Below, in pieces: positions 31,396-59,030 of a stretch of DNA of 64,000 nucleotides. The notes below the pieces were generated by a model. The model was not told where the DNA came from. It searched no databases and saw nothing but the letters and a program-made list of their open reading frames with translations. Each line of letters starts with the position of its first letter. Position 1 is the stretch's first letter. Both the position numbers and the translations under genes were made by a program. This stretch comes from a virus (taxonomy: Duplodnaviria; Caudoviricetes), in the IMG/VR virus record IMGVR_UViG_3300045972_000152, positions 1,134 to 65,133 of that record, one strand, 5' to 3'.

Positions 31396-32997
31396 TTACA
31401 CGCTCCTAAAGATGTTGGTTTTGGTCAAATCAGCAAAATGGGGAGAGGCGATTGTCGGGCCGCGTTGTCTACGCTCGCGTACCCGTTTTAGATACATACT
31501 CATGGGGTCGATTGTATCATCATGTTCACCCATGGGGAACTGCATACATTCCTCTTCGAAAGGTTGTATCCAGTTAGCATGTAGTTTGCCTTCGGGAATT
31601 TCCACATAACAAGTGGCATCTTCAGGAATCCAAACCGTACCAGCTTCGATAGCTATGGACTCGTTTTCCATACGAACTGTTTTGCTGAAGGAACCGGGGT
31701 CGATACCGATAATATTGAATTTAGTTTCCTCCTTTAAACAGGCAATGAGAGCTATGCCGGAAGACTTATCCTCTATCAGTATTTCATGTGGACGCCATAT
31801 CTGGCAAAGGTTCTTTGCTTGGCGCTTCAGCTCGGGGAAAGCGCACTTCTTTCGCCACATATAAATGAGATAGTAGCCAGTAGCAGTTTCGACCCAGACC
31901 TCACACACCGAATAGTCGTTAAGCTCGTTCTCTTTGCTGGCAGTATCGAATACTAGAGATATCCGTTTCCACGATTTTCGGTCAGGGGCAACCTTCCACC
32001 GCTTGAAGCTCAACATTGGGATGATGCCGCCCTCACGGGGGGAGGGACGTTGTTGCAACTGACCGGCAGAGGCGTAGGTACCGAGTGCCTGTTTGAGTAC
32101 GTTTATCTCAGGACGGCCAAAGCGTTCCGGCCAAAGCAGTTCACCCTCTTCCTTCCGGGGGTCACCCTTCCAGCCGTGAAAAGTTCTTAGGCTCATCTTG
32201 CGTTTACTTTCAAGCTCGTACTCAGCCGGAAGTATCAAGTAGGTATATTCATCGCCATACTTACGCATGATATGACCAGATAGATCAAGATAATGTGTTC
32301 TCTGCTGAATAGATACCAGCACCCCGGTCTTAGGGTCGTTGAAACGAGACTGCATTGCCTCATCGAACCAGTTGTTCGTGGCCGTTCTGGTTGTTTCGGA
32401 TTCGGCCTCACGCACGTTGTTAGCGTCATCAATGATGATGTAGTCGCCGCCCTCTCCGGTTGCCGTACCGTCAACAGAGGTAGCGATTCGGTAGCCGCCT
32501 TTATCGTTATCGAACCTTACCTTGGTATTCTGGTCCGAGGTAAGCCTAACAAGGTTACCCCAGCGTTCTTGATATAGTGGACTGTCAATGATACGGCGGC
32601 ACTTCACACCGTCACGAATGGAGAGCGAATGCGCGTAAGACGCGAAAAGAAACTGAAGCGCCGGTTTCTTTATCCACGCCCACGCGGGAAAACCTACGGA
32701 GATACCGAGAGATTTCATGTGGCGGGGAGGGATATTGATAAGCAAACGCCGTATATCACCAGTAAGTGTAGCGCTCATGTGCTCGCAGATGGCGTCGATA
32801 TGCCAGCCATGGACATAGGGGTGCGGGTCAATCGCCGTCCACATTTGGCGCAGGAAGTGAGACAGGGACTTTTCGGCTAATACCTTGTCTATTACCTCAG
32901 TCGGAGTGCTAAGGAGCCTTCTTGCCCTTAGAATGTCCTCTGAAGTAAGCTCTACTTGCGGGGCCTGTTGACGGCTTACGGGTGTCGTTCTTGACAT
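31396..32997 (-). CDS. terL: terminase large subunit
   Basis: INIPPRHMKS Walker A, IIIDD Walker B, QQRP, FDTA and HDDTID nuclease motifs. Confidence 0.95.
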   Translation of the reverse strand: MSRTTPVSRQQAPQVELTSEDILRARRLLSTPTEVIDKVLAEKSLSHFLRQMWTAIDPHPYVHGWHIDAICEHMSATLTGDIRRLLINIPPRHMKSLGISVGFPAWAWIKKPALQFLFASYAHSLSIRDGVKCRRIIDSPLYQERWGNLVRLTSDQNTKVRFDNDKGGYRIATSVDGTATGEGGDYIIIDDANNVREAESETTRTATNNWFDEAMQSRFNDPKTGVLVSIQQRTHYLDLSGHIMRKYGDEYTYLILPAEYELESKRKMSLRTFHGWKGDPRKEEGELLWPERFGRPEINVLKQALGTYASAGQLQQRPSPREGGIIPMLSFKRWKVAPDRKSWKRISLVFDTASKENELNDYSVCEVWVETATGYYLIYMWRKKCAFPELKRQAKNLCQIWRPHEILIEDKSSGIALIACLKEETKFNIIGIDPGSFSKTVRMENESIAIEAGTVWIPEDATCYVEIPEGKLHANWIQPFEEECMQFPMGEHDDTIDPMSMYLKRVRERRQRGPTIASPHFADLTKTNIFRSV

Positions 32998-36705: not shown

Positions 36706-37039
36706 ATGACTAAACAAGAATTCGCCGCCGCTTTCAAACTTGCCTCAAGTGGAAAGGACCCTTTCCGGCGTTGACACGTCACACCTTTTCGGGTGTGGGT
36801 TGCCTGACTTTCAACCGGTTCACACCACTATTGACGCCGTTGCCGCTTTGATCCGTTGGCAAGCGTTGCAATTCAACGGGCAATGGGACGCAACCGAATT
36901 AGACAATATGGCATGGATTGCAAAACGCAAGTTCACGCTGATTGACGGCGGCGCATATACCGTAATCGAAGGGGAATTTACATCGGCGGAAATAGCCGGA
37001 ATTCGCGCAACATCCCGCATATTTCAGGCAAACGCTTGA
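36706..37039 (+). pseudogene. early gene apparently interrupted by a +1 frameshift near 36759-36761
   Basis: ATG 36706 frame MTKQEFAAAFKLASSGKD stops early; the +1 frame continues LSGVDTSHLFGCGLPDF to 37039. Confidence 0.5.
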
Positions 37040-38444: not shown

Positions 38445-39443
38445 ATGAAAGCATCGGATTTGGCAAGTGTTCTTTCCATCATGGTAGCAGGAAAACGCCC
38501 TGTATTGGTTACAGGTGCCCCCGGCATCGGAAAATCGGATTTAGTAGCAAGCGTTGCCGGAAATACCGGGGCCGATTTGGTAATCATGCATCCGGTTGTT
38601 TCGGACCCGACAGATTACAAAGGTTTGCCGGGCATTGTCGATGGTGCGGCGGAATTCCTTCCCTATGGCGAATTACGTAAAATTCAGCACGCCGACCGCC
38701 TGACAATCTGTTTTCTTGACGATATCGGGCAAGCAGCTCCCAGCGTGCAAGCGGCATTAATGCAACTCCTTTTGGCGCGGGAAATAAACGGCGTCAAGAT
38801 ATCGGACCATGTAACATTCATCGCGGCAACTAATCGCCGTGAGGACCGCGCCGGAGTAGGCGGGATGCTTGAGCCGGTTAAAAGCCGGTTCACGGGCGGC
38901 ATCGTCAACCTTGAGGTGGATGTTGAGGATTGGATTAATTGGGCGCTTTCGGCTGATTTGCCGATTGAGGTAATCGCCTTTGTGAAGTTCAAACCGGCGA
39001 TGCTCCATGACTTCAAAGCAACGGCCGATTTGATCAACTCTCCTTGCCCCCGCACGGTTGCCGCTGTAGGAAAGGCGTTTGAGCTGGGAATACCTCAGCA
39101 ATTGGAGTTCGAAGTTTACAAGGGCATCGCCGGTGAAGGGTTTGCATCGGAGTTTCTTGCTTTCGTAAAAATCATGAGGCAACTTCCTAACGCCGATGAA
39201 ATTCTGTTGGACCCCGACAGCGTGCCGATGCCTGAGGACCCCGCCGTTTTGTATGCTCTTTCCGGCTCACTAGCAAGGAAAGCAAGCGAAACCACGATGG
39301 AAAGAATTCTGAAGTTTGCCGACCGGATGCCGCCGGAATTTCAGGTCCTTTTGATCCGGGACGCTGTGAAACGCGACAGAAAATGCACGCACACAAAAGC
39401 CTATATCCAATGGGCACAGAAAAACGCTAGCGTACTCATTTAA
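38445..39443 (+). CDS. MoxR-like AAA+ ATPase
   Basis: GAPGIGKS Walker A, CFLDD Walker B, VQAALMQL, AATNR, SRF, PCPR. Confidence 0.88.
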   Translation: MKASDLASVLSIMVAGKRPVLVTGAPGIGKSDLVASVAGNTGADLVIMHPVVSDPTDYKGLPGIVDGAAEFLPYGELRKIQHADRLTICFLDDIGQAAPSVQAALMQLLLAREINGVKISDHVTFIAATNRREDRAGVGGMLEPVKSRFTGGIVNLEVDVEDWINWALSADLPIEVIAFVKFKPAMLHDFKATADLINSPCPRTVAAVGKAFELGIPQQLEFEVYKGIAGEGFASEFLAFVKIMRQLPNADEILLDPDSVPMPEDPAVLYALSGSLARKASETTMERILKFADRMPPEFQVLLIRDAVKRDRKCTHTKAYIQWAQKNASVLI

Positions 39444-39529
39444 CGGTGCAGGGGTGTTATGCTGGGAAAGGTAACACCCCGCCCTTTCAACCTACTACAA
39501 CCGAAATTTAGAGCATACAGGGGGATAAA

Positions 39530-40399
39530 ATGACACCGGTAACCAATGGCGTGAGCCTTACAGAAAAAGCAATGCTTGTCTCCCTTTCCATTTCATCATG
39601 GCAGGGTCGGAAACTTGATAAAACCGCAACCAAAAAGGTACAGGTTGACAATGGGGCCGCCGATGGTACGGGGCGATACCACAAAAACACCGTAGCTAAG
39701 GAGGCACTAAAGGATATCGCGGCAACCATCGGGGCCGCTCGGACGTTCCACTATGCCAATACCCTGCCATGGAACGATTTAGGCCAGCGCATTTTACCAT
39801 CTGCAAACTTCCTGCCCTATACTGAGGAAATGCGGAAACTTAAAACCAACTTCGAAAACGCCGTGATGAAGTTTGTTGCGGATTACCCGCAGCACGTACA
39901 AGAGGCACGCGCCTTGCTGGGAACGATGTATAATTCTGAAGACTACCCGCAGCAAGGCCAAATCGCGGGGCGTTTCGCTTTCGAATTCTACGTTGACCCG
40001 ATACCTAACGCTGGTGACTTTCGGGTTACCCTTCAGTCGGATGAAGTGAACACCATACAGGCACAAATCACAGCAAGGGTAGAAGCGGCACAAACCGCCG
40101 CTATCGGTGACCTTTGGGACCGCCTGAAAGAGGTACTGGGAAAGGTTGAGGAAAGGCTATCAGACCCGGAGGCTATCTTTAGGGATAGCCTGATAGATAA
40201 CATGGTAGAGCTAACGGAGCTTGTACCGCGCCTGAACTTTACCAATGACCGGAAACTTTCGCGTACCGTTTCCATGATAGAAGATCGGATCAACACCCTT
40301 GACCCCTCAACCCTGAGAAACAACCTAGTTGAGAGGAAAGCGGCTGCAAAGGACGCTAAAGCTATTCTCGATATCATGGCCGGTTATTGCGGCAACTAG
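39530..40399 (+). CDS. conserved helical protein (DUF3150-like) in AAA+/VWA operon
   Basis: AMLVSLSISSW.G.K.D, TLPWND.G.RILP, IFRDSLIDN. Confidence 0.65.
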   Translation: MTPVTNGVSLTEKAMLVSLSISSWQGRKLDKTATKKVQVDNGAADGTGRYHKNTVAKEALKDIAATIGAARTFHYANTLPWNDLGQRILPSANFLPYTEEMRKLKTNFENAVMKFVADYPQHVQEARALLGTMYNSEDYPQQGQIAGRFAFEFYVDPIPNAGDFRVTLQSDEVNTIQAQITARVEAAQTAAIGDLWDRLKEVLGKVEERLSDPEAIFRDSLIDNMVELTELVPRLNFTNDRKLSRTVSMIEDRINTLDPSTLRNNLVERKAAAKDAKAILDIMAGYCGN

Positions 40400-40403
40400 G
40401 GCA

Positions 40404-40449
40404 GCTTATAGGCGGGTTTAAGGTGACAGATTAAACCCCCTGTATAACC
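40404..40449 (+). repeat. conserved intergenic hairpin, copy 3
   Basis: gcttata-ggcgg-gtttaa-ggtgacaga-ttaaac-cccc-tg-tataacc. Confidence 0.85.
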
Positions 40450-40485
40450 TTTCCTAACGTCAACCCCAACAAAGGAGCTAAAACC

Positions 40486-41700
40486 ATGGATACCACGGCA
40501 CGTCAAACAATCGTTAAGGCAAGGGCGGCATTGATCCTTGACCATCCATTTTTTGGGGCGCTTGCCTTGCGCCTGTTGCTCAAAGAGGACACTGGATGCA
40601 AAACATCATGGGTTGACGGTGTAACCCTTGGTTATAATCCGGTTTATATCAATTCCCTTCCCATGGATGAAGTAAAGGCGCTTGTCTGCCATGAGGTGTT
40701 ACACCTTGCGCTTGCCCATCATACCCGCCGCAATGATCGGGATTTTGATGAATGGAACGAGGCGTGCGATTTCCCCACCAATCAAACCGTTCATGATGTG
40801 GGTATGCCGATTGGTAAGGGTTGGCTTTTCGACCCGCTCTATAAGGATTTAAACTCTGAAACCATCTATGACAAACGGCACCGGGAAAAACAACAGGGCG
40901 GCGGCAATGGTCCCGGTAATCAGCCGGGACAACCGCAACCGGGACAACCGCAACCGGGACAACCGCAACCGGGACAGGGGAAAGGGCAAGGCACCCCGCA
41001 ACCGGTACCGGGAGAAGTTAGGGATTTACCGGGAACGGATGGACAACCGGCAACCCAGACCCAGAAAGATATATCAGCGCAGGATTGGCAAGTTGCCGCA
41101 ACTCAGGCGGCGCAACAGGCTAAAGCTTGTGGCAGGCTTCCGGGAAATATTGAGGAGCTTATCGAAAAGCTGAATGAGCCTAAAGTTAACTGGAAAGAGG
41201 CGTTACAGCGGTTTGTTGAGCAACAGGCTAAAAATGATTACAGCTTCCGTCGTATCAACCCCCGCTTTGCCGGTCGCGGGGTGTGCCTCCCCTCTCTGCA
41301 CTCTGAAGAGTTGCCCCCCATCCGGGTTGCGATTGATACCAGCGCATCGGTTAGCAAGGAGGAGTTGGAGCAATTCGCAAGTGAGATTGACGATATATTG
41401 TTTCACTATCCCACTACCGTAGAAACCATCTATTGCGATACGAGGGTTAACGGCACCGAAACCTTTAGCCGGGAGAATCGCCCTGTAAAGCTTAATGTAA
41501 AAGGCCGGGGCGGCACCCGCTTTAGTCCTGCATTTGAGCATGTGGAAAAGCTGGGAGAGGAAACCACCTGCTTGATATACCTATCTGATATGGACTGTGA
41601 TGATTTCGGTCCCGCTCCTGATTATCCGGTACTGTGGGTACAGACGATGGGAAAAGCTAAAAAGGTTCCTTTCGGTGAACTTATCAGGATGAACAAATAA
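40486..41700 (+). CDS. HEXXH metallopeptidase-like plus VWA domain protein (DUF2201-like)
   Basis: HPFFG, HEVLH..AHH.RR, IDTSAS MIDAS-like motif, GRGGT.F.P, YLSD. Confidence 0.85.
   Translation: MDTTARQTIVKARAALILDHPFFGALALRLLLKEDTGCKTSWVDGVTLGYNPVYINSLPMDEVKALVCHEVLHLALAHHTRRNDRDFDEWNEACDFPTNQTVHDVGMPIGKGWLFDPLYKDLNSETIYDKRHREKQQGGGNGPGNQPGQPQPGQPQPGQPQPGQGKGQGTPQPVPGEVRDLPGTDGQPATQTQKDISAQDWQVAATQAAQQAKACGRLPGNIEELIEKLNEPKVNWKEALQRFVEQQAKNDYSFRRINPRFAGRGVCLPSLHSEELPPIRVAIDTSASVSKEELEQFASEIDDILFHYPTTVETIYCDTRVNGTETFSRENRPVKLNVKGRGGTRFSPAFEHVEKLGEETTCLIYLSDMDCDDFGPAPDYPVLWVQTMGKAKKVPFGELIRMNK
40924..40976. repeat. 15-bp coding tandem repeat (PGQPQ)
   Basis: unit ccgggacaaccgcaa, about 3.5 copies. 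Confidence 0.9.
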
Positions 41701-44394: not shown

Positions 44395-44404
44395 GGGGTT
44401 TAAG

Positions 44405-46186
44405 TTGGACAAGGACAAGCTCGCACTTATCAAATCTAGGTATACCACAAAGCCCGTGGAACAGGCACCGAGGGGGGCAAACCCCGCCCCCCTGTACTTT
44501 GACCGCCTTGCCTCTCTTGACCCTTCTGGGCGTATCCTTATGCGCTTTAAGAAGCAAAAGGTGTTGGTTGAGTGTGTCAAGAAGATCACCCGCCGCCACT
44601 TCGAAGGGGAGCGCAAGGGTTATGTGTATTGGAGCGCACCATTTACCCTTGAAGCGGTTAGATATCTTCGCACGGGTAATTTTCGCCTGACTCCTGAACT
44701 GGTGGAGAAGGAAAGTGCAGCAACCCGCCCCATTAAGCTTGACATGAATTTTACCATCACCGGCCTACAGAGAGAACTACGCCACTTCCAGTATGAAGGG
44801 GTTGCTTTTCTTGAGGCGATGTTAAAGGAACACCCCGGCGCTATCATAGGTGACGAACCGGGACTAGGAAAAACCGCACAGTTTTTGGCCTACCTGCAAC
44901 GACACCCCGAAGAACGTACAGCCGTTATCGTATGCCCCGCCACACTCAAACTCAATTGGGCAAAAGAGATTTTCCTGTGGATGATACCCACACCGGAGAA
45001 TCGCGTATATCTTCTATCCGGAATGACCCGCCGTACTTGTGAGGAAATCACCATGTATCGGGGCCGCTTAGTGATACGCGAATGCCCTATTCCTGCCAAA
45101 GGTATTTTCATTATCAACTATAACATAGTAATCGACTGGTACGAGGTGCTTTTATCCCTCAAACCGAAAATCATAGCGTTTGATGAAGCACAAGCACTGA
45201 AGAACAAAAAGACTATGCAGACTGACGTTTGCATGAAACTGGCAACAGGTAACCCGGATGATGGTTGGCGCGGAATTCCCAAGCGTATCCCCATTACCGG
45301 TACCCTGTTTGAAAACAACGTGCAGGAATTGTTTAACTCCCTTTCCATGGTGCGACCCGACCTGTTCACCTCATGGTTTAAGTTCAACGAGCGATATAAT
45401 AAGGAAATGAGGACTAAGGACAGGACACTGGAATTGCATAAGCTTATCAAGCTGGCTTGCATTCGAAGGAAAAAGCGGGACGTGTTGAAAGAGTTGCCGC
45501 CTAAGATCAAATCGGTAATTCCTCTGAATATCACCAACTCTTCAGAGTACATGCAAGCAGAGAATAACTTTCTATCGTGGATCAAAGGTACCAAGGGTCA
45601 AGAAGCCTCAGACAGAGCAATGCTAATTAAAGGGTTGGCAAGGATCAACGCCCTAAAAGAAATCGCCGTGAAAGGCAAAATAGACGCTTGTATAAAGTGG
45701 ATTGAGAACTATTTAGAGTCTGGGGAAAAGTTGGTAGTATTTGCGGAACATACTTGGATTGTTGATAAGGTATGCAAGCATTTCAAAGGCCGTGCTGTGA
45801 TGATTGACGGTAGGATAACCGGAGTCAAGCGCAACGAAGCGGTTGAACGTTTCCAGACTGACCCGAATATCGTGCTATTCATGGGACAGATTAAGGCGGC
45901 AGGTACCGGCTTGACCTTGACGGCAGCAAGCGCAACCTGTACCCTCCAACTTGTATGGAATCCGAAGGTACACGAACAGGCTGATGATAGGGTGCATCGA
46001 ATAGGACAGGAAGACAGCGTAAATAACTACTATCTAATATCCTCTGATACAATAGAAGAGGATTTAGCATACGGTCTTGATGAGAAGGATATCGAAGCAG
46101 CACTTATCATGGACGGCGAAGAAGTGGTAAGCGTCAATCTACTCTCTTCCATTATGCGCCGTATGAAGGAGAGACACGGCCTATGA
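44405..46186 (+). CDS. SNF2-family helicase/ATPase
   Basis: GDEPGLGKT, FDEAQ, ITGT, GTGLTLT, QADDRVHRIGQ. Confidence 0.92.
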   Translation: MDKDKLALIKSRYTTKPVEQAPRGANPAPLYFDRLASLDPSGRILMRFKKQKVLVECVKKITRRHFEGERKGYVYWSAPFTLEAVRYLRTGNFRLTPELVEKESAATRPIKLDMNFTITGLQRELRHFQYEGVAFLEAMLKEHPGAIIGDEPGLGKTAQFLAYLQRHPEERTAVIVCPATLKLNWAKEIFLWMIPTPENRVYLLSGMTRRTCEEITMYRGRLVIRECPIPAKGIFIINYNIVIDWYEVLLSLKPKIIAFDEAQALKNKKTMQTDVCMKLATGNPDDGWRGIPKRIPITGTLFENNVQELFNSLSMVRPDLFTSWFKFNERYNKEMRTKDRTLELHKLIKLACIRRKKRDVLKELPPKIKSVIPLNITNSSEYMQAENNFLSWIKGTKGQEASDRAMLIKGLARINALKEIAVKGKIDACIKWIENYLESGEKLVVFAEHTWIVDKVCKHFKGRAVMIDGRITGVKRNEAVERFQTDPNIVLFMGQIKAAGTGLTLTAASATCTLQLVWNPKVHEQADDRVHRIGQEDSVNNYYLISSDTIEEDLAYGLDEKDIEAALIMDGEEVVSVNLLSSIMRRMKERHGL

Positions 46187-46494
46187 AAGACAAAATACAA
46201 GACGAACAGGATATAATTCAACGCTGGCAACTTTGGATAAAAGGACAGCAACCCTTTTTATTCATTGCCGGTAGGGTATTTACCTCTTCAGCAATATCAA
46301 GTATGGCATGGATGCGTGTCTTTGAGTGGAGGGACAACGGGGCGAAATACCATGTTGATGACTTTCCTTTGCATGACGGGAAAATCTACATGCCGTCACT
46401 TATCATCCATGCGAAGCTTGATCCCTATCACCCAGACGTTCAACGGCTGTTAGCTCATGTGGTTACTGAAAGGATTGAGGAGGGTAGGATATGA
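46183..46494 (+). CDS. small protein, VTxR[LI] group
   Basis: ATGA-coupled; ends HVVTERIEEGRI. Confidence 0.65.
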   Translation: MKDKIQDEQDIIQRWQLWIKGQQPFLFIAGRVFTSSAISSMAWMRVFEWRDNGAKYHVDDFPLHDGKIYMPSLIIHAKLDPYHPDVQRLLAHVVTERIEEGRI

Positions 46495-46931
46495 AAGGCA
46501 AAGCAGCAAGGATCATTGAAAAGGTTTTTGACAAAGCGGGTTTCCTCACTGTCGGTACGCGGGAGTTTCGTCGGGTTGAGAAGGAAAGCAAGTTTAAGAT
46601 ATATGAGGTTACTAACCCGAACAAAAATAAGTACATCGGATTGTACTGTAAGTTCACACCTATTCGCTTCACGGTAGATACTCAAAAAACTGAGGACATG
46701 AAAACGTGGGGGGAGCGGTTCATTGACGACGCAAGTATTTCCGATGGTGATTTGTCGGTTCTTGTTGTTACTCATCGAATAACCGAATCCGATAAACCGA
46801 ACGAGCCTCAGTTCATAAAGTTAAAAGCAGGAGTAGAAGTTAATATCACGTTCGAAAGTAACCTCGACTCCCTACGCTTCTTGCAAACTCACAGACCCAT
46901 GGGTATAGCTAACATGGATTTAACGGTGTAG
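46491..46931 (+). CDS. small protein, VTxR[LI] group, with GIY-YIG-like fragment
   Basis: KIYEVTNPNKNKYIG; LVVTHRI. Confidence 0.65.
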   Translation: MKGKAARIIEKVFDKAGFLTVGTREFRRVEKESKFKIYEVTNPNKNKYIGLYCKFTPIRFTVDTQKTEDMKTWGERFIDDASISDGDLSVLVVTHRITESDKPNEPQFIKLKAGVEVNITFESNLDSLRFLQTHRPMGIANMDLTV

Positions 46932-46933
46932 TC

Positions 46934-47269
46934 ATGATATTCGATAGAGCCAAGTTCATTAGGAAGACTGAGCCAACGGAGCTTTCCAAACTTGTAGAGC
47001 AAGCTGATAATATTTTTGAAACCCGCTATAAGGACACCCGCCCACGGTTCGAAGTGGGGTTGAGGAAGTTCATAACAATACGTAAATTCAAAATAGGTCA
47101 TCTGAGTGTTCAGGTATTTGAGGAATTCGAAACCGGCAATGTCTTACTGGGTGAATATCATTCTGGCTCTTGGAGTTTGGAGTTTTTAGCAGACAGACAC
47201 CTAAGTAAAGAAGAGATACAGGTTTTTCTCGTTACCGAGCGATTACTGGGGGCCATTGATGCTAATTAA
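46934..47269 (+). CDS. small protein, VTxR[LI] group
   Basis: ends FLVTERLLGAIDAN. Confidence 0.65.
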   Translation: MIFDRAKFIRKTEPTELSKLVEQADNIFETRYKDTRPRFEVGLRKFITIRKFKIGHLSVQVFEEFETGNVLLGEYHSGSWSLEFLADRHLSKEEIQVFLVTERLLGAIDAN

Positions 47270-47468
47270 ATGTATGTTCTGCGGTGAAGATATACAGCCA
47301 AAGAAATATTCAATAGTTGAAATCAAGAGCGGGGCCGTGGCTGAGTTGTTAGGATTCGATATAGGTAATGCAAAGTCCATGGACGTTAGGCTACACCCTG
47401 ACTGTGCCCAAGTTGTAAAGGTTACCATCCGAATTCACAGCGAACAGATTGGCTTTACTTTATTCTAA
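47256..47468 (+). CDS. CxxC-HxxC Zn finger protein, VTxR[LI] group
   Basis: CMFC...HPDCAQVVKVTIRI. Confidence 0.6.
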   Translation: MMLIKCMFCGEDIQPKKYSIVEIKSGAVAELLGFDIGNAKSMDVRLHPDCAQVVKVTIRIHSEQIGFTLF

Positions 47469-47477
47469 GGAGTTGAT

Positions 47478-47666
47478 ATGAATTGTCCGGTATGCAGGAA
47501 AGAGGTCAAGACCACGGGACGCAAGGCTAAGGGTTATTCGCGTGTTGCTAACACCTTCTTCCCCTCAATGATGGATATACCTTGGGAAGAGTCACACCAT
47601 CTGATTCATTCCCATTGCAAGGCGGCGGTGAATGTGACCCACCGCCTGTTGGAGTCCACAAGATGA
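47478..47666 (+). CDS. CxxC-HxxC Zn finger protein, VTxR[LI] group
   Basis: CPVC...HSHCKAAVNVTHRLL; SD AAGGAG. Confidence 0.65.
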   Translation: MNCPVCRKEVKTTGRKAKGYSRVANTFFPSMMDIPWEESHHLIHSHCKAAVNVTHRLLESTR

Positions 47667-48391
47667 AATGCCCAGTATGCAAAAAGACCCTTCAGAAGCT
47701 CCAAAAACGGCCACCGTGGGCATATTCACCGGGGAACTACCGGCAACGCCAGAAAGACGAACAGGAGCGCCTAAAGCAATCCATGCTCGCCTATACAGAA
47801 GTGAGGACTGCGTATGACGATGTGCTTGGTGTACCTCATAAGGAAACTCCATATTACATGCACAACGAGTGCGCCGATGCCTACTTTGCAACGGTGCGTT
47901 TGCTTAGATCAACCGGAGAACTCAAGAGCCGCGCTGAAATACTAGCCGAACAACTGCTAGAATTTTCAAATCAAAGAGCTATCAAAATGATGAACAACGG
48001 CATTTTTGGTAAAATCGCCAACTCAAGTTTTAATAGTATCGTAAACATTGGCATGTTTCCTGAGCAACCTCCGTTAAACGATACAGTAGACGCTTTAGCT
48101 TACGTTACTTACGCCCAGAACACTCATCGGTTGCATGGAAGTAGCGGAAGTGTAATTATGATAGATGACGTTGAAACCGAATCAACCCCGGAAGACCGAG
48201 CTAAAGTTAAAAAGTGGTATGATGATGTTCTTACGAAGCGTAGGGCGCAGGTTCTTTCCACTAACCACGATTTTCTAAAAGGAACTATCGACTTCGAAAT
48301 CAAGATCGACCATGACAAGAACTGGGATACCAACAATGCAGATATTATAAAGAACATAAAGGACGCACTTGAAAAGCTAAGGGGGATGTGA
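47663..48391 (+). CDS. Zn finger plus patchwork of PolB-, terminase- and capsid-like motif fragments
   Basis: probable start ATG 47663 (ATGA overlap); CPVC...HNEC, ATVRLL, then motif look-alikes (see findings). Confidence 0.75.
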   Translation: MKCPVCKKTLQKLQKRPPWAYSPGNYRQRQKDEQERLKQSMLAYTEVRTAYDDVLGVPHKETPYYMHNECADAYFATVRLLRSTGELKSRAEILAEQLLEFSNQRAIKMMNNGIFGKIANSSFNSIVNIGMFPEQPPLNDTVDALAYVTYAQNTHRLHGSSGSVIMIDDVETESTPEDRAKVKKWYDDVLTKRRAQVLSTNHDFLKGTIDFEIKIDHDKNWDTNNADIIKNIKDALEKLRGM

Positions 48392-48978
48392 TGGCAAGGA
48401 CAACAGGAAAACCCGCAACACCGGCAGCACCTACCATTTCGCGGCACATGGAATACAAGGGATTTACCATCGCTCGCATGAGTAACGGTGAAACTTGGTA
48501 CTATGAGCCGGGAGAGCCGTACTATGTAACACCGGACGTTCCGACAGCAAAAGGGGAAATAGACGCGATGTTAGACGAACCGAAAGAGTACACCGGCAGG
48601 GGCCACGGTGGATACATCTATGGACCGCCCGAGTGGTGCAAGCGTAGGGTGCAGTTCGACGGAGAGCCGGGATATTGGTGGGCTGACGCCATACTCTGCC
48701 ACGGCTCCTGCAAAGAGAACCATCATTGTCCCGTGTTCACAGAGTTCATGGCAGGACAGCGGGACAGGATTAAACTGATGAATACCGAAAAAGCCGGTCC
48801 CGAGTGTCCTCACTGCAAAAGTCCTCTTCAGGTGGAGTATCCCAATCATACCGCCGTTTACGGGTGTGGCACTATCTACAGTCGAATTTCCAGCGATTAC
48901 AAGCAACATTGCCCCGTTAAAGGCAAGAAGAAAGAACCGGAAGCCGAACAGCCACCCAGACGCCGCCGCACCACTTAG
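48391..48978 (+). CDS. Cys-rich hypothetical protein starting MARTTG
   Basis: multiple Cys clusters; ends RRRRTT. Confidence 0.65.
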   Translation: MARTTGKPATPAAPTISRHMEYKGFTIARMSNGETWYYEPGEPYYVTPDVPTAKGEIDAMLDEPKEYTGRGHGGYIYGPPEWCKRRVQFDGEPGYWWADAILCHGSCKENHHCPVFTEFMAGQRDRIKLMNTEKAGPECPHCKSPLQVEYPNHTAVYGCGTIYSRISSDYKQHCPVKGKKKEPEAEQPPRRRRTT

Positions 48979-48990
48979 GAGGGTAACGAC

Positions 48991-49194
48991 ATGGGAAAAC
49001 CACAACCAAACAAAGGCAAGGGGATTTGCCCCGTATGTCTCAAGCTGGTAAGTATCACGGCGAACGGGAAAATTAGAGGTCACTGGTTCCACCACTTGCC
49101 CACACCGTACCCGGAAGGTACTAGCTACAAGTGCGACGGTTCTTATCGTATATATAGGGGAGAGTATGTCATCACTAAATCCACAACCCAATAA
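48991..49194 (+). CDS. small Zn-binding protein
   Basis: GICPVC...H...CDGS; SD GGAGGG. Confidence 0.6.
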   Translation: MGKPQPNKGKGICPVCLKLVSITANGKIRGHWFHHLPTPYPEGTSYKCDGSYRIYRGEYVITKSTTQ

Positions 49195-49429
49195 GGACGT
49201 TCCGACCCGCTATGTCTGGTATTTAAGCGTGGTGTGGATTTACGAAGGACAGAAGGATCACCGTGGTTTTGTGTCTCTGATAAACATAAGGGATAATAGC
49301 CTTGGGATCAACGCCGACCCCACCAAGATCAGGAATTGCACTTTCGAAGAGATTGATGCAATCAACTACTTCACACAAAGGAGATTGTACGATGCTGGAA
49401 GCAATCGCAAAGAAGAACGGGTTTCGTGA
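49166..49429 (+). CDS. hypothetical protein
   Basis: SD GGGGAG; operon context. Confidence 0.5.
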   Translation: MSSLNPQPNKDVPTRYVWYLSVVWIYEGQKDHRGFVSLINIRDNSLGINADPTKIRNCTFEEIDAINYFTQRRLYDAGSNRKEERVS

Positions 49430-49913
49430 TGAGCAGGAGTTTCACAAGCTGGTTGCTAGTGTTAAGCTTGAGGCACCGGGGGCTGAGTGGGCCTTCAAGG
49501 ATTGGCAGCATAACGATGCCACCAAAGCGGGGTTGTTTCATCGCTTTCCCTACCTCGCCCCGAAACCGGTCAACGTTATATCTCTCATCAATTCGATGAT
49601 CCGTGACATTCAACGTGCTACCGGTTTCCTGACCAAGATAGAAATGAAGGTTACCGTGGAAGGCTTGCAAGTCATGGTGTTGATTCACAACGGCAAGCAA
49701 AAGAAGACATACGGCATCGACAACGTGTTCACTGCCGACCACTTGGCCGACCCTGAGAACTGGAAGTATCTAACTGAACAGCGCGATAAGATCATCAAAG
49801 CTGTTCAGGGTGCCGTGCTCCCCTTGCGTCCCATAATCAGAACGGAGGAAGTCCACGGAATGAAAGTAGATGTTGTTGAGGAGGGACACTATGACCCCGC
49901 CCAAAAAGGATAG
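49392..49913 (+). CDS. hypothetical protein
   Basis: start MLEAIAKK with AAAGGAG SD. Confidence 0.6.
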   Translation: MLEAIAKKNGFRDEQEFHKLVASVKLEAPGAEWAFKDWQHNDATKAGLFHRFPYLAPKPVNVISLINSMIRDIQRATGFLTKIEMKVTVEGLQVMVLIHNGKQKKTYGIDNVFTADHLADPENWKYLTEQRDKIIKAVQGAVLPLRPIIRTEEVHGMKVDVVEEGHYDPAQKG

Positions 49914-50121
49914 AAGCGGAGAGGAGCGGGAGGAGGAGGTTGAACCCGCAGGGGAACTCAAACGGGTTTGCGGCGAATGCCCTTTCTGCAACGCCGAGGG
50001 CGAAGACGTGTTTGAGCGCAGATACTACAAGTGTGGCTCCTATGCCGACAGAGAAACGGGAGAGCACATCCAACAGTGCTACACTCCAATAATCACAACA
50101 CAATGGGGGCCATTGCGATGA
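49870..50121 (+). CDS. small Cys-containing protein
   Basis: CPFC...YKCGS...QC, similar to the C-terminal part of ORF 48391. Confidence 0.5.
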   Translation: MLLRRDTMTPPKKDRSGEEREEEVEPAGELKRVCGECPFCNAEGEDVFERRYYKCGSYADRETGEHIQQCYTPIITTQWGPLR

Positions 50122-50490
50122 ACGATGAACACGAAAAGTATCAACCCGAGGACGTTTGTGAAAAGACCCTGAAGTTCCTACGCGAAAAGCGTAATAACGC
50201 AATGGCAGCCGGTGACAGTGCTGCTTTCACCGGATACAACCGCCGGATAATGGAAATCCTCTGTGGGATGAATCCCTCATAAGGAGAAGTTATGAAAGAG
50301 ATATGCTCCTGTTGCGGGATTGGTTATCAACTATTTAATTCCGCTCTTTTCAATCCCCACCTTAAGATCAAAGGTTATCTAGTTCCAGTTTGCGTAAGCT
50401 GTGCAGCTAGCGCCTTTGAAACTTCCTTCAGGATAGTATTCGGGATGAAGGTGGGAACCGAGTACACCTAACACACCGGGGATCAACGCC

Positions 50491-51411
50491 GTGGCATTTG
50501 ATGTTGTAAAATTCTACAATGACTATCACGTACCAATCGCAACTAGCGGTAAGCACTATCGCGCGGGGTGGGTTAACACCAACTGCCCCTTTTGCGGTGG
50601 ACGTGATGGTCATTTGGGTGTCTTCCTCGCAACCGGCGCAATCAAGTGTTGGAAGTGCGGCAAGCACGGAGAGGTTGAAGTTATCAAAGCCCTCCTTGCT
50701 TGCGACTGGGACAGGGCAGTAGAGATACACAGGCAGTATGAGAAGAGGGGTAGACGTGCCGCAGGGGAGGCACAAACCCGTCTCAAGGCAACCGCTACAG
50801 TCTGCGAATACCCAAGCTTCACCGGCCCCCTAAACTCCGCTCATAGGGCATATTTGGAAGGCCGAAAATATGACCCCGACCTTTTAGCCGAGGTATGGGG
50901 GTTAAGAGGTACCTCAAACCTTGGGGATTACAAGTTTCGTATCATCGCACCAATAACCCTTGACGGTAAAATGGTGAGTTTCCAAGGACGTGATATAACT
51001 AATCAATCTGACATGAAGTACAAGGCTTGCAAGAAGGAGAGGGAGGTTGTAGACCATCAAGATGTGGTGTATGGGCTAGATCAGGCCAAACGTAAGGCGT
51101 GTGTGCTAGTGGAAGGTATCGCGGACGTGTGGCGGTTAGGTCCGGGGGCGGTATGCTGTTTCGGTATCGCGTACACCATGGCTCAGGTAAACCTCCTAGT
51201 CAAGAAGTTTAAGACGGTTTATATCATGTTTGACGGTGGTGAAACAGAAGCTGCAAAACAGGCTAGAAAGATAGCCTTACTCCTGAGCAACCGAGGAGTG
51301 GATGTTGAAATGCTTTTCCTTGACAGCGGTGACCCCGGCGAAATGTCTCAGGTTGATGCGGACGAACTTATGCGCGACCTGTATTTGGAAGGGTATAGAA
51401 ATTTTCGTTGA
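50491..51411 (+). CDS. DNA primase (Zn finger plus TOPRIM)
   Basis: CPFC..H...CWKC, RIIAPI, FQGR, KY, LVEGIAD, MFDG, DPGE. Confidence 0.88.
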   Translation: MAFDVVKFYNDYHVPIATSGKHYRAGWVNTNCPFCGGRDGHLGVFLATGAIKCWKCGKHGEVEVIKALLACDWDRAVEIHRQYEKRGRRAAGEAQTRLKATATVCEYPSFTGPLNSAHRAYLEGRKYDPDLLAEVWGLRGTSNLGDYKFRIIAPITLDGKMVSFQGRDITNQSDMKYKACKKEREVVDHQDVVYGLDQAKRKACVLVEGIADVWRLGPGAVCCFGIAYTMAQVNLLVKKFKTVYIMFDGGETEAAKQARKIALLLSNRGVDVEMLFLDSGDPGEMSQVDADELMRDLYLEGYRNFR

Positions 51412-51436
51412 CTTTCTGAAGCACCCCGTTTATTGT
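51408..51436 (+). promoter_or_regulatory. sigma70-type promoter
   Basis: TTGACT-17 bp-TATTGT. Confidence 0.5.
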
Positions 51437-51504
51437 TCTGGCTTTCGGAGCGGTACGCCGTCTAGCTAACGGCACCGTCCTAGATTGATGTAAAATTTGG
51501 GAAC

Positions 51505-51555
51505 AGGGGCGACTCCTCAGCGCCCCTTAGTACCCGCCTACTGAGGAGGGGCGCT
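51505..51555 (+). promoter_or_regulatory. alternative hairpin/pseudoknot over the ribosome-binding site
   Basis: aggggcg/cgcccct, ctcctcag/ctgaggag and agcgcccct/aggggcgct pairings. Confidence 0.55.
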
Positions 51556-51559
51556 ATCA

Positions 51560-51787
51560 ATGCAAGACACCCGCAACACCCATCCCCTGTCTACAACCTG
51601 CTTGAAATGCAAGCGCGTCTCAAAATGCCTCCATGTGCGGGAGGTAGCCTTGAGCGCCTTCTTGCGCCTTCCCCGTATCATAGACGCCTACCAAATCTTT
51701 GAACTAACCGCATCACGCTGTACCGACTTCAGTAATAAGAAACGCCGCGACAAATCCCCCCAACTAACACTTGATTTGGAGTTTTGA
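51560..51787 (+). CDS. small Cys-rich protein
   Basis: CLKC...C...C; SD GAGGAGG. Confidence 0.5.
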   Translation: MQDTRNTHPLSTTCLKCKRVSKCLHVREVALSAFLRLPRIIDAYQIFELTASRCTDFSNKKRRDKSPQLTLDLEF

Positions 51788-51788
51788 T

Positions 51789-52193
51789 ATGTATTCTAAC
51801 GAAAGGAGAGGTAAGCCGAAAGGTACCTCTGACCTAAACGCTCGCTATATATCATTTGCTGAAAGGCTAGCAGACATTGTGCTACCGTATCGCACTACTA
51901 ACATAACTGACACAGATATAAAGAAGTGGGCAACTGAAATCAGGTTACTTAGGACACAGAATAACATCGACATACCGGCAATAAACGCCGTACTTAATTG
52001 GTACTCCGAGTACATAGGGGGCGAGTTTATACCCGAAGCATACAGCGGATCATCATTTAGAAAGAAGTTCCCCAACCTTCAGGCGGCAATGAAGCGCAGC
52101 GAGACAAGGAACAACAGGCGCGGCCCCCTTCCTTCCACTAACGAAACTTATGATGATATACCTGTTCACAGAATAAACAACCAAAGGAGCTAG
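51789..52193 (+). CDS. replication initiator-like C-terminal domain protein
   Basis: W..EIRLLR, VLNWY, P.AYS..SFRKKF..L pattern; upstream of DnaC-like loader. Confidence 0.55.
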   Translation: MYSNERRGKPKGTSDLNARYISFAERLADIVLPYRTTNITDTDIKKWATEIRLLRTQNNIDIPAINAVLNWYSEYIGGEFIPEAYSGSSFRKKFPNLQAAMKRSETRNNRRGPLPSTNETYDDIPVHRINNQRS

Positions 52194-56633: not shown

Positions 56634-57503
56634 ATGCACAACTGGTCGAATGATGTTGTTCAATGGAAGATGAACGGCATAACTCACTTGTCCGTTCCCT
56701 TCACATGGTTCGTCAAAAAAGCTATCGCTCTCGCCAACAAAGAAAAGGGTAAGGTTATAATCGGCGGCCCCGGTGCAATGCTCATGCAGGAAATGATTGA
56801 GAGTCGTACTGGGAAAAACGTGCAGTATCGTTCTTCACTGGAAGGCATCGAACCAGTCACACTCCACAACCCATTTGCAACCTTCACAACTCGCGGCTGC
56901 ATTTCTAAATGCAAGTTCTGTGCGGTGCCTGTTATCGAAGGTACGTTCAGGGAAGTATCGGATTTTGTCCCCCGCCCCATTGTCTGCGATAACAACTTTC
57001 TCGCAGCGTCTAAAGTGCATTTCAACAAGGCTGTCGATAAGCTTAAGATCATGCCTTGCGTGGACTTCAACCAAGGGCTTGACGCTACCATTTTCACGCC
57101 CGAAAAAGCCGACAGGCTGGCCGAACTCAAAATCCCTGTACTCAGGTTCTCCTTTGACGGCTTGCAGAAAGAAGCCGCCGTTATGGACGCGATTAAGCTG
57201 GCTCGCTCCAAGGGCTTCCGGCAGATATCCATTTATGTTCTGTACGGTTTCAAGTACAGTATTGATGACTCTGTTTACATGGCACAGCTTATGCGTGACG
57301 CCAAGGTACGTGTCTATCCAATGCGCTATCAACCGCTTGACTCGCTGGCACGCAATGCCTACGTTGATACTGCTAACGGCTGGACCGCTAATCTCCTGAG
57401 TGCCTTTCAGAGGTGCTTCTTCTGCACCAACACCCCGTTCCATGAATTCAACAATCAGGTTGCTTACATGGATGACACTGAGGGTTTCTTCGAAGAAATC
57501 TAG
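56634..57503 (+). CDS. radical SAM protein
   Basis: TTRGCISKCKFC (CxxxCxxC), DNNFLA, DFNQGLDA, RFSFD, YVLYGF, YPMRYQP. Confidence 0.9.
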   Translation: MHNWSNDVVQWKMNGITHLSVPFTWFVKKAIALANKEKGKVIIGGPGAMLMQEMIESRTGKNVQYRSSLEGIEPVTLHNPFATFTTRGCISKCKFCAVPVIEGTFREVSDFVPRPIVCDNNFLAASKVHFNKAVDKLKIMPCVDFNQGLDATIFTPEKADRLAELKIPVLRFSFDGLQKEAAVMDAIKLARSKGFRQISIYVLYGFKYSIDDSVYMAQLMRDAKVRVYPMRYQPLDSLARNAYVDTANGWTANLLSAFQRCFFCTNTPFHEFNNQVAYMDDTEGFFEEI

Positions 57504-57511
57504 GAGGGATT

Positions 57512-57742
57512 GTGCAAGAGAAGATATTTGAATCGGAGAAGCACGGAACCATCAAAGTTAGATTGGATGGTGGCGTTTTGAAGTTCCTCTTTCATTGCTA
57601 CCCCGGCGCTCCACTCTCAGCTATGACTTTCAAGAGCCGAGAAATGAATACCGAGGAGATAGTACAAAAGGCTTTCGACAAACAGACAGCCGAAAGTGCA
57701 GCCAATATCGTTACAATCGCCAAGAGTAAGTTGGCTAACTAA
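57512..57742 (+). CDS. hypothetical protein
   Basis: SD AGGAGG. Confidence 0.55.
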   Translation: MQEKIFESEKHGTIKVRLDGGVLKFLFHCYPGAPLSAMTFKSREMNTEEIVQKAFDKQTAESAANIVTIAKSKLAN

Positions 57743-57756
57743 ACAGGAGGTTATCA

Positions 57757-58773
57757 ATGAAGGTAAACAGGAAGGGGTTGCTTGCAGCCCTGAAGCTCGT
57801 AGAACCGGGGCTTGCCAAGGATTCCAAGATGGAGCAAGACGGTTGCTTTGTCTTCACTGAGGACGGCAGGGTGTGTACGTTTAACAACAACGTATCCATA
57901 TCCTACCCGATAGCTGTCGGCATCGTGGGGGCCGTTCCCTCTAAGGGCCTTCTGGGCATGTGCGAGAAGACCAAAGCCGAGGAAGTAGAGCTTACCATTA
58001 TCAACGGCGATGGGGGAAGCAAGGAAGTCATGTTCGTAGGCTCCAAGGCAAAAGCGGGGTTGCGAATGGAGGCTAAAATACTGCTTCCCTTAGACATGGT
58101 AGGCTTTCCTGAGGTGTGGGAACCCCTCCCCGAAAACTTCAACGCTGCGCTCAAATTTAGCCTCTTTTCGGCGGGAAAGGATCAGAACAAAGCGGCCTTC
58201 ACCGGCATCCACGTCATGAGCGATTGCCTTGAGTCCTGCGATAACAACAGGGCTACCCGTTACTACTTTGTGGAAGGTGCTCCGATGGTGGAAATGTTGA
58301 TCCCCGCCGCGCACGCCAAGGAGCTTATCGGGTACAAGTGTGATGAGTTTGCCGTCACCCCCGGCTGGCTCCATTTCCGCAATCCCGATGACGTAACTTT
58401 CTCCTGCCGCTACCTTGAGGAGGAGTACCCGGACCTCGATAAGTTCCTTGAGTGCGTAGGGGAAGAAACCACCTTCCCCGAAGGAATGAGCGAGATTCTG
58501 GACCGCGCTGAGGTACTATCAGACGGCGACAAGGTGAACGTCTACCTTGAGAGCAAGCGGATGATAATCTCCACCGAAGGCTCCCACGGTTGGTTCGAAG
58601 AAGAGGACAAGGTGACCTACGGCGGGAAGCCGGTTGAATTCGATATCGCACCCAACTTCCTCGCCGCCATGCTCAAGCTCAACTCTACAATCGTAATCGG
58701 CCCCGGAAGGCTCCTGTTTGACGCTCAGGAGTTTATCCATATCGTCAAGACTTACGTTCCCAAAAAGAGGTAA
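57757..58773 (+). CDS. DNA sliding clamp (Pol III beta-like)
   Basis: 338 aa; MKVNRKGLL.AL, ESCDN.R, YP.L.K.L, FDIAPNFL patterns. Confidence 0.75.
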   Translation: MKVNRKGLLAALKLVEPGLAKDSKMEQDGCFVFTEDGRVCTFNNNVSISYPIAVGIVGAVPSKGLLGMCEKTKAEEVELTIINGDGGSKEVMFVGSKAKAGLRMEAKILLPLDMVGFPEVWEPLPENFNAALKFSLFSAGKDQNKAAFTGIHVMSDCLESCDNNRATRYYFVEGAPMVEMLIPAAHAKELIGYKCDEFAVTPGWLHFRNPDDVTFSCRYLEEEYPDLDKFLECVGEETTFPEGMSEILDRAEVLSDGDKVNVYLESKRMIISTEGSHGWFEEEDKVTYGGKPVEFDIAPNFLAAMLKLNSTIVIGPGRLLFDAQEFIHIVKTYVPKKR

Positions 58774-58778
58774 TCATC

Positions 58779-59030
58779 ATGGTCCTTTTCAGATTCGTCA
58801 CAGCGATGTACAAGTTCATACGCAGCGGTTGCCTCAAGGTTTCCCCCAAGGCTCGCCAGATCAGACTTGATACCTGCAAAGCCTGTCCGAAACTAAAGGG
58901 CCTGAACTGTTCAGTGTGCGGCTGTTTCGTGCACCTCAAGTCATGGTGTGCAACCGAGGAATGCCCCGAAGCAAGGTGGGCAGAAGCATTATATCAGCAG
59001 TCTAACCCTAAAACAGAAGGAGGACGTTGA
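58779..59030 (+). CDS. Cys-rich small protein (DUF6171-like)
   Basis: RL..CKAC...CSVCGCFV..K...CP..RW. Confidence 0.65.
   Translation: MVLFRFVTAMYKFIRSGCLKVSPKARQIRLDTCKACPKLKGLNCSVCGCFVHLKSWCATEECPEARWAEALYQQSNPKTEGGR

Follow-up and report, generated by a model that had tools for sequence, protein, structure and literature searches.

Six motif-bearing genes behind a SNF2-family helicase gene

We analysed 64,000 of the 65,133 bases of one virus contig (IMG/VR record IMGVR_UViG_3300045972_000152); this whole stretch is referred to below as the window. PHROG and Pfam scans show the siphovirus-like layout of an uncultured phage. The subject here is a tandem array of six small open reading frames (ORFs), o1 to o6, on the plus strand at 46183-48391, each of which encodes one copy of the short motif [VA]-T-x-R-[LI]. 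An earlier note on this DNA had pointed to six such strings in tandem small ORFs; all six are present, and the coordinates attached to them there are ORF starts rather than motif positions.

The first gene, o1 (46183..46494, plus strand; 103 residues), has no Cys/His site and carries VTERI at 46462-46476, five residues before the stop. It is followed by o2 (46491..46931, plus strand; 146 residues), in which 49 residues come after VTHRI (46767-46781), and by o3 (46934..47269, plus strand; 111 residues), whose VTERL (47231-47245) lies seven residues before the stop. The fourth ORF, o4 (47259..47468, plus strand), encodes 69 residues, or 70 if translation begins at a TTG at 47256; C5, C8, H46 and C49 form its putative zinc site, and VTIRI (47421-47435) leaves a tail of 10 residues. 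A similar arrangement is found in o5 (47478..47666, plus strand; 62 residues, net charge +5), with C3, C6, H44, C47 and VTHRL (47634-47648) five residues from the end.

The last and largest member, o6 (47663..48391, plus strand; 242 residues), begins with a finger module (residues 1-86, 47663..47920) in which C3, C6, H67 and C70 are the putative ligands and a basic insertion separates the two ligand pairs. Its motif, ATVRL (47888-47902), is followed by 162 residues, and approximately residues 111-200 (47993..48262, plus strand) resemble the Walker-B region of the ATPase of the large terminase (TerL). The motif is near the C-terminus in o1, o3, o4 and o5, and more protein follows it in o2 and o6, as had been described.

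The array is translationally coupled behind the SNF2-family helicase gene. The start of o1 overlaps the SNF2 stop codon (ATGA), o2 overlaps the stop of o1, and the ATG of o6 overlaps the stop of o5; a longer o6 frame, from a TTG at 47582, is less likely. In all six ORFs the start or the ribosome-binding site is plausible, and the in-frame codon score is positive.

Enrichment of the motif and the level at which it acts

The motif is strongly concentrated in the array. The six ORFs, with 733 residues in total, contain the pattern [VA]T.R[LI] six times and the other called genes of the window contain it once, compared with 27 occurrences in 503,641 residues called from 160 distantly related phage loci; the Poisson probability of at least six copies in the six ORFs is about 5e-12. 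For the extended form, [AVL]-hydrophobic-x-[VA]-T-x-[RK]-[LI], the counts are six in 733 residues and six in 503,641. A de novo search of the six ORFs for patterns with four of five positions fixed returned VT.R[LI], shared by five of the six, as its best result. When the six ORFs were shuffled 1000 times, the best pattern was common to two of them (916 shuffles) or three (84). A look-elsewhere control, which took every run of six genes among 91 proteins in 1000 proteome shuffles, gave maxima of three (479 shuffles), four (513) and five (8), so that a pattern shared by five of six has a p of about 0.008.

The constraint acts on the protein, because the codons differ and there is no direct or inverted DNA repeat at the six motif sites. 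The motif arginine is encoded by AGG, CGA (three times), CGC and CGT, and the final Leu/Ile by ATT, ATA, TTA, ATT, CTG and TTG in order from o1 to o6. The motif signal is thus at the protein level. Enrichment relative to shuffled proteomes and conservation in orthologs had both been named as checks by the earlier note. The enrichment is seen against shuffles of the six ORFs and of the whole proteome, and the motif is kept in all five finger homologs found in foreign sequences (Thr in five; Arg in three and Lys in two).

Outside the array, the number of motif copies fits the background rate. Two strings previously listed as possible outlying members, FTQRRL (49166) and YMTARLA (63221), do not belong with the others by this measure: a block profile built from the six copies retrieves neither. 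The copy in an ORF of 99 residues at 36740-37039 is ATSRI, which is followed by five residues and a stop, just as the motifs of o1 and o5 are; its block-profile score is negative, and it is probably a chance occurrence. If the contig were circular, positions 65131-65133 joined to 1-159 (contig numbering, outside the window) would form a 53-residue ORF with a GTG start and VTRRI 13 residues before the stop. This end-crossing ORF is hypothetical, being conditional on circularity.

A family of small C2HC finger proteins

The last three ORFs had been reported to place the motif at the same distance after a CxxC...HxxC finger. This holds: H-x2-C-x5-[VA]-T is found in o4, o5 and o6, and likewise in the five foreign homologs, giving eight of eight finger proteins. 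The finger modules of o4, o5 and o6 are paralogs, most clearly so for o5 and o6, with a Smith-Waterman z of 10.9 that falls to 7.0 when the motif is masked. Comparison of the o4 family with the o6 family by hhalign gave a probability of 94.5% (E 7.8e-8). This paralogy means that common descent explains half of the motif sharing.

An exhaustive HMMER search of 1.84 billion representatives with the finger-family profile (E<=1e-3) returned 12 hits, comprising the three window proteins, five true homologs (E 4.8e-11 to 1.1e-4) and four unrelated repeat proteins. The homologs come from other metagenomes. Two, with lengths of 61 and 76 residues, are o4-like (P0133, 46% identity; P0129, 48%) and three, with lengths of 187, 229 and 320 residues, are o6-like (P0125, 42%; P0127, 38%; P0126, 33%). 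When the motif was masked on both sides of the comparison, profile and targets, the scores of the five homologs were still 29-53.5 bits, compared with noise of at most 9.2 bits in a set of 16.5k ORFs; they are therefore real relatives. An o4-like and an o6-like homolog probably lie on one foreign contig (the longest contig of each has 2508 bases), which suggests that the pair is syntenic elsewhere.

In the alignment of o4, o5, o6, P0125, P0126, P0127, P0129 and P0133, the invariant positions are the first Cys pair, a Tyr and a Val in the middle of the module, the His and Cys of the second pair, and the motif Thr, which is as invariant as the zinc ligands. The motif Arg column holds Arg in six sequences and Lys in two. 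The net charge is +5 in o5 and in the N-terminal part of o6, and +3 to +7 in the homologs. An Arg/Lys-rich insertion between the ligand pairs is conserved in the o6 family; a second T.R[LI] string in o6 (NTHRL) is not.

The family is otherwise very poorly represented. The finger module has no match among Pfam, PHROG, NCBIfam or PADLOC families, and no PDB sequence matches the finger proteins. Neither the o6 family (A6) nor the o4 family (A7) was matched in IMG/VR, and A6 had no match in genome contigs. When five whole related virus records were searched with the eight-sequence profile, only their TerL matched. A tblastn search of 50,697 GenBank phages with all six ORFs gave no match at E<=1, and a full-text search of the literature found no description of the motif or the family.

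Several known families were considered for the finger proteins and rejected. The PARP-type zinc finger (PF00645) has the signature C-x2-C-x28-30-H-x2-C; the ligand pairs here are separated by 37 residues (o4, o5) or 60 (o6), and Pfam gave no match at E<=0.1 for the window proteins or at E<=1 for the homologs. For the antirestriction protein ArdA, an acidic DNA mimic, the best PDB match of the eight-sequence profile (2w82_A) reached only E 0.14, and the modules are net basic. A ribbon-helix-helix protein has a strand resembling v-T-v-R-L followed by two helices; only 5-10 residues follow the motif in four members of the array, again with no Pfam match. A similarity of P0126 to a Vibrio phage helicase (E 0.4-0.5) was dropped. 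Small ORFs with CxxC pairs occur at 48991, 49870 and 50292 (window 48991-50471); they lack the motif and their match to the finger profile is not significant. An alignment by eye of the ORF at 50292 as a fourth finger paralog was likewise not significant.

Position of the motif within the finger

In o4-o6 and the homologs the motif is, on the basis of the fixed spacing and the alignment, part of a predicted folded, basic C2HC zinc-finger module and not a free docking peptide. Treble-clef fingers have their second ligand pair at the start of a helix. In the present family, the HxxC pair is followed by Ala and helix-favouring residues in five of the eight finger sequences, and the segment from HxxC to the motif looks like such a helix start. 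Counting from the His, hydrophobic positions fall at +3 (the Cys), +6/+7, +10 (the Thr) and +13/+14, and the Thr lies seven residues after the liganding Cys. Cys, Thr, Val and Leu/Ile would then share one helix face, and the Arg/Lys (+12) would sit on a neighbouring, more exposed face. A helical motif is plausible on these grounds.

A foreign coiled-coil repeat protein of 679 residues (P0128) entered the profile search through words like VTARLLES and was lost once the motif was masked. Its words show that the motif is compatible with a long helix.

The terminase-like segment of o6

The earlier note had singled out o6 as a patchwork protein and the largest of the set, and profile matches bear this out: they indicate that o6 consists of the finger module joined to a decayed piece of a terminase ATPase. 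An hhalign comparison of the o6 family profile with the TerL of the same phage pairs residues 111-200 of o6 with residues 113-221 of TerL (probability 73%, P 3e-5). Run against the six-frame translated genome, the eight-sequence profile returned o6, o5 and o4, then TerL at E 9.9e-7. The same profile matched ORFs of 493 and 503 residues in two related records (E 1.3e-7 and 0.002), both of which are large terminases according to PHROGs. The o6-like homolog P0126 matches phrog_4758, also a terminase, in its C-terminal part (E 6.4e-5).

On the TerL side, the alignment covers the Walker-B strand and the helix that follows. It extends over no more than about 90 residues of o6, and the N-terminal ~110 residues of TerL and its nuclease half have no counterpart. 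The TerL of this phage is likely the source or a relative of the C-terminal segment of o6, judging from these alignments.

The first three ORFs

That the first three ORFs have unrelated N-termini, as had been claimed, is essentially right, since o2 and o3 share only a C-terminal block of 26 residues. This block ends in the motif and aligns with a Smith-Waterman z of 5.2, or 2.2 with the motif masked.

No homolog of o1 was found by word index, in GenBank phages or among PDB sequences, o1 having had no exhaustive profile search. The word-index search of o6 and o1 returned only the queries themselves, which is weak evidence, as the exhaustive search did find relatives of o6 at 33-42% identity. 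For o2 there is no Pfam or PHROG family and no match in phages by tblastn. For o3, too, tblastn found no phage match; the exhaustive profile search did not cover o1-o3.

Other assignments for these ORFs fell short. A PD-(D/E)XK fold for o2 had Atlas scores of 0.85-0.89, under the 0.9 bar, and matches of o2 to aspartate transcarbamoylase and to an anti-CRISPR chain had E of 0.078 and 0.44. The similarity of o3 to serpins had E above 0.5. When o1-o5 were considered as fragments of other phage genes, nothing fell below E 0.09.

Three origins of o1-o3 fit the data: loss of the ligands after common descent, recombination that kept the C-terminal element, or convergence on a common partner.

A duplicated and partly zinc-less finger module as the preferred explanation

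Our preferred explanation, to which we assign a probability of about 0.5, sees the motif as the signature segment of a small finger module, binding nucleic acid or protein, that was duplicated, fused and in part stripped of its zinc site. What carries this explanation is the enrichment of the motif, the paralogy of o4, o5 and o6, the conservation in relatives and the terminase-like segment. The array would consist of lineage-specific accessory genes in a hypervariable slot between the SNF2 and primase genes. Its core would be a small basic C2HC zinc-finger module, absent from curated libraries, that spread by tandem duplication; the module would stand alone in o4 and o5, and in o6 would be fused to a decayed piece of the ATPase of the phage's own TerL.

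Within the module, the motif would be the segment starting six residues after the HxxC ligand pair, where we infer a helix. Its V/A, Thr and L/I would pack on the face of the Cys that presumably binds zinc, and so hold the fold, and the exposed Arg (Lys in two relatives) would contact the ligand. Nucleic acid is the most likely ligand and a common protein the second candidate; nucleic acid is ranked first because the modules are mostly basic and the o6 family has the Arg/Lys-rich insertion. The first three ORFs would be zinc-less derivatives or recombinants in which the same eight-residue signature, [AVL]-hydrophobic-x-[VA]-T-x-R-[LI], ends unrelated domains of about 95 residues, retained because it makes the same contact.

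A number of findings weigh against this explanation. The hydrophobic moment, about equal at 160 degrees and at 100-110 degrees, leaves the predicted helix ambiguous, and many residues in the o4 family are beta-branched (Val, Ile, Thr); o4 itself has a net charge of 0 and is not basic. The conservation in relatives is subject to ascertainment bias. The motif added 5-10 bits to the homolog scores, four of the five homologs would probably miss E 1e-3 in the big library without it, and motif-less relatives may therefore have been missed. No family, solved structure or paper gives a function for the module.

The first three ORFs present the greatest difficulty: they have no Cys/His site and no demonstrable homology to the finger group beyond the signature. 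Compared with them by hhalign, the o4 family aligns in register with a probability of 8.4% (P 0.004), and the o6 family with P 0.49. A block profile built from the fingers only, run against 16,512 ORFs, reaches o2 at E 2.8 and o3 at E 5.5 as the second and eighth non-self hits, with o1 outside the top 14; the reverse profile places o5 first at E 0.71. The retention of a polar Thr/Arg pair on another scaffold speaks for a functional epitope and against a remnant of a fold, and this favours a docking function.

Such a function had been proposed in the earlier note, in which the motif is a short docking helix that attaches unrelated domains to one phage or host hub, as a set of adaptors or effectors to which o6 brings a terminase-like piece. 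Part of that proposal stands: there is a genuine, strongly clustered motif whose signal is in the protein, and o6 is composite; the free docking peptide does not stand in o4-o6, where the motif is at a fixed spacing in a C2HC domain. The presence of the motif in o1-o3 keeps a shared epitope alive as a reading. It is in keeping with the same eight-residue signature on three scaffolds without detectable homology to the finger group, with conserved residues that include a polar Thr and a basic Arg/Lys, with a position that varies (C-terminal in four members, internal in two), with retention of the motif in relatives, and with the translational coupling of all six genes behind SNF2. Docking nevertheless seems doubtful to us overall. 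The constant distance between motif and ligands in o4-o6 and the five homologs, which would put Thr on the helix face of the Cys, fits an element of the fold; no candidate hub emerged; and elsewhere in the phage the motif occurs only at background frequency. Nor did a full-text search of the literature bring up a docking motif of this form, and to our knowledge none is known.

The preferred finger module could also be extended by supposing that finger and motif together form a portable address tag, an idea we think unlikely. Its conserved Thr/Arg face would dock on one target, such as DNA of the phage or its host, or a protein of replication or packaging. The cargoes riding along would be the unrelated domains of o1-o3 and, in o6, the terminase fragment, which might serve as a decoy or a poison subunit and thereby tune or sabotage DNA packaging.

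Alternatively, the shared segment could be a homo- or hetero-oligomerisation element that pairs members of the array. It is amphipathic, with positions -3, -2, 0 and +4 hydrophobic in 11 of 11 sequences (the His of o1 counted); a coiled-coil protein, P0128, was matched through the same word and only through it; and o4-like and o6-like genes probably occur together on one foreign contig. Against this, the finger fold itself probably takes up the hydrophobic face, and strict conservation of Thr and Arg/Lys is atypical of a plain zipper. Pairing by this element has a low likelihood.

There is only a slight chance that the motif is a processing or modification site (P4 [VA], P3 Thr, P1 Arg/Lys, P1' Leu/Ile) at which a phage or host enzyme releases C-terminal peptides or cargo. 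The exchange of Arg for Lys in relatives fits a trypsin-like P1, four members would free tails of 5-10 residues, and the phage encodes a DUF2201 putative metallopeptidase with a VWA-like domain (40486-41697); the site, however, lies directly after a zinc knuckle, where ordered structure is expected, the freed tails are not conserved, and there is no precedent.

It is hardly credible that the motif is due to chance, or to a DNA or RNA signal (promoter, terminator, recombination linker or coupling element) whose translation happens to yield it. In favour of this, four of six sites begin with GTTAC, four lie 32-47 nucleotides before the stop and upstream of the next start, and eight of 1000 whole-proteome shuffles reach a 5/6 shared pattern somewhere. 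Against it, the Arg and Leu/Ile codons differ, direct and inverted repeats are absent from the sites, promoter- and terminator-like sites are about as frequent as in shuffled sequence, Rfam gives no match, and the motif is conserved in protein homologs on other contigs.

Comparison with known systems

Lineage-specific tandem expansions of small zinc-finger or zinc-ribbon proteins are a general pattern in phages. The present array resembles them in that o4, o5 and the N-terminal part of o6 are tandem paralogs with an invariant CxxC...HxxC. It differs in that the family is very rare (the five homologs among 1.84 billion representatives) and absent from curated libraries, and in that three neighbours carry the signature segment without the finger. 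A loss of ligands by a zinc module that keeps its role is known from the C+/C- paralogs of ribosomal proteins, and the same route is proposed here for o1-o3; there, however, the homology extends over the whole domain, whereas here it is undetectable beyond about 8-26 residues.

Short docking motifs in flexible termini include the sliding-clamp-binding motif and the capsid-targeting sequence of the T4 internal proteins. The array shares with these a short sequence common to different proteins, here encoded side by side. Half of its copies, unlike theirs, are at a fixed place inside a zinc-finger domain, and the motif sequence is itself different.

Silas et al. (bioRxiv 10.1101/2023.04.06.535777) have described fast-evolving phage accessory genes in variable regions between conserved genes. 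The two cases are alike in having small, mostly orphan genes with conserved borders and variable content, and the G+C content (GC) of the present array is lower than that of its surroundings. They differ in that the members here share one motif, which is not known as a feature of such regions, and in that PADLOC, Pfam, PHROGs and NCBIfam give no match pointing to counter-defence in this array.

The kind of locus is familiar, a lineage-specific array of small zinc-finger accessory genes, and the family is new to the libraries searched. The array adds a rare small zinc-finger family not described in curated libraries, and offers an example of a phage filling a slot between conserved replication genes with duplicated and recombined mini-genes. 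Two features go beyond the ordinary: the finger-less motif carriers (o1-o3) and the fusion, in o6, of a finger with part of the packaging ATPase of the phage itself. If the Thr/Arg face were indeed a common address, the array would offer a simple natural case in which to study how phages target several small effectors to one place, and would suggest a design principle of phage mini-genes that has not been described; if not, it would be a normal lineage-specific expansion.

Genomic setting of the array

The array lies in a variable slot whose upstream border is the SNF2-family helicase gene (44405..46186, plus strand; Pfam SNF2-rel_dom E 3.1e-34, Helicase_C E 1.4e-11) and whose downstream border is a primase gene with a CHC2 finger and a toprim domain (50491..51411, plus strand; weak Pfam matches to DNAG_N, Toprim_3 and Zn_ribbon_DnaG). 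In distant phages (loci L001, L006, L028 and L038) the order of SNF2, unrelated small ORFs and CHC2/toprim primase is kept. The slot measures about 0.75-2 kb in these distant relatives, compared with 4.3 kb and 13 ORFs, several of them Cys-rich, in the present phage.

Directly after o6, an ORF at 48388-48978 encodes a Cys/His-rich protein of 196 residues that belongs to no known family. Weak homologs of it lie downstream of SNF2 in two relatives (L028, 9447-9917, E 1.6e-5; L038, 11574-11909, E 2.5e-5), which gives the six ORFs the appearance of an insertion or expansion in the slot between SNF2 and primase. The GC of o1-o4 and o6 is 0.41-0.44 and that of o5 is 0.51; the values for the window, the SNF2 gene and the ORF after o6 are 0.49, 0.476 and 0.54, respectively.

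Relatives of the locus are distant. GenBank phages gave no DNA-level match to window positions 44400-52000. In IMG/VR, the best identity reached with the SNF2 profile was 42%, and SNF2 as a single query matched nothing. Neither a motif array nor a homolog of o1-o6 was found in the 160 loci collected with the SNF2 profile from IMG/VR and metagenome contigs (at most 42% identity). The closest relatives of the SNF2 protein have 85% identity (P0002, on a 4.3-kb contig) and 59% (P0003 and P0004, on contigs of 72-74 kb). Among public sequencing runs, only one, from a pond metagenome that is probably the source, contains this DNA; at 80% likeness, that run yielded only three tiny unrelated pieces beyond the contig itself.

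The remainder of the window follows the siphovirus-like layout. PHROG and Pfam assign the terminase, portal, major head protein, a tape measure of 2127 residues, tail genes and endolysin to the minus strand, with the phage's own TerL (532 residues) at 31396..32994 (minus strand; phrog_38, E 8.9e-87). Early and replication genes occupy the plus strand from about 33.8 kb; besides the SNF2 helicase and primase, the replication genes encode DnaD-, DnaC- and DnaB-like proteins, a clamp-like processivity factor, RtcB and a DNA polymerase. The window contains no tRNA gene and has no Rfam match.

Three other gene groups may be mentioned. In the early region (window 38445-41697), genes for a MoxR-like AAA ATPase, a DUF3150 protein and the DUF2201 putative metallopeptidase with a VWA-like domain are clustered; the last carries a PHROG label of HNH endonuclease that is unsupported by Pfam. 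The replication module (window 56634-60194) includes a radical-SAM-like protein (weak Pfam match, phrog_9298) together with the clamp-like processivity factor and the RtcB ligase. At 206-2545, a gene for an SbcC-like AAA protein adjoins one for a calcineurin-like phosphoesterase, forming an SbcCD-like pair.

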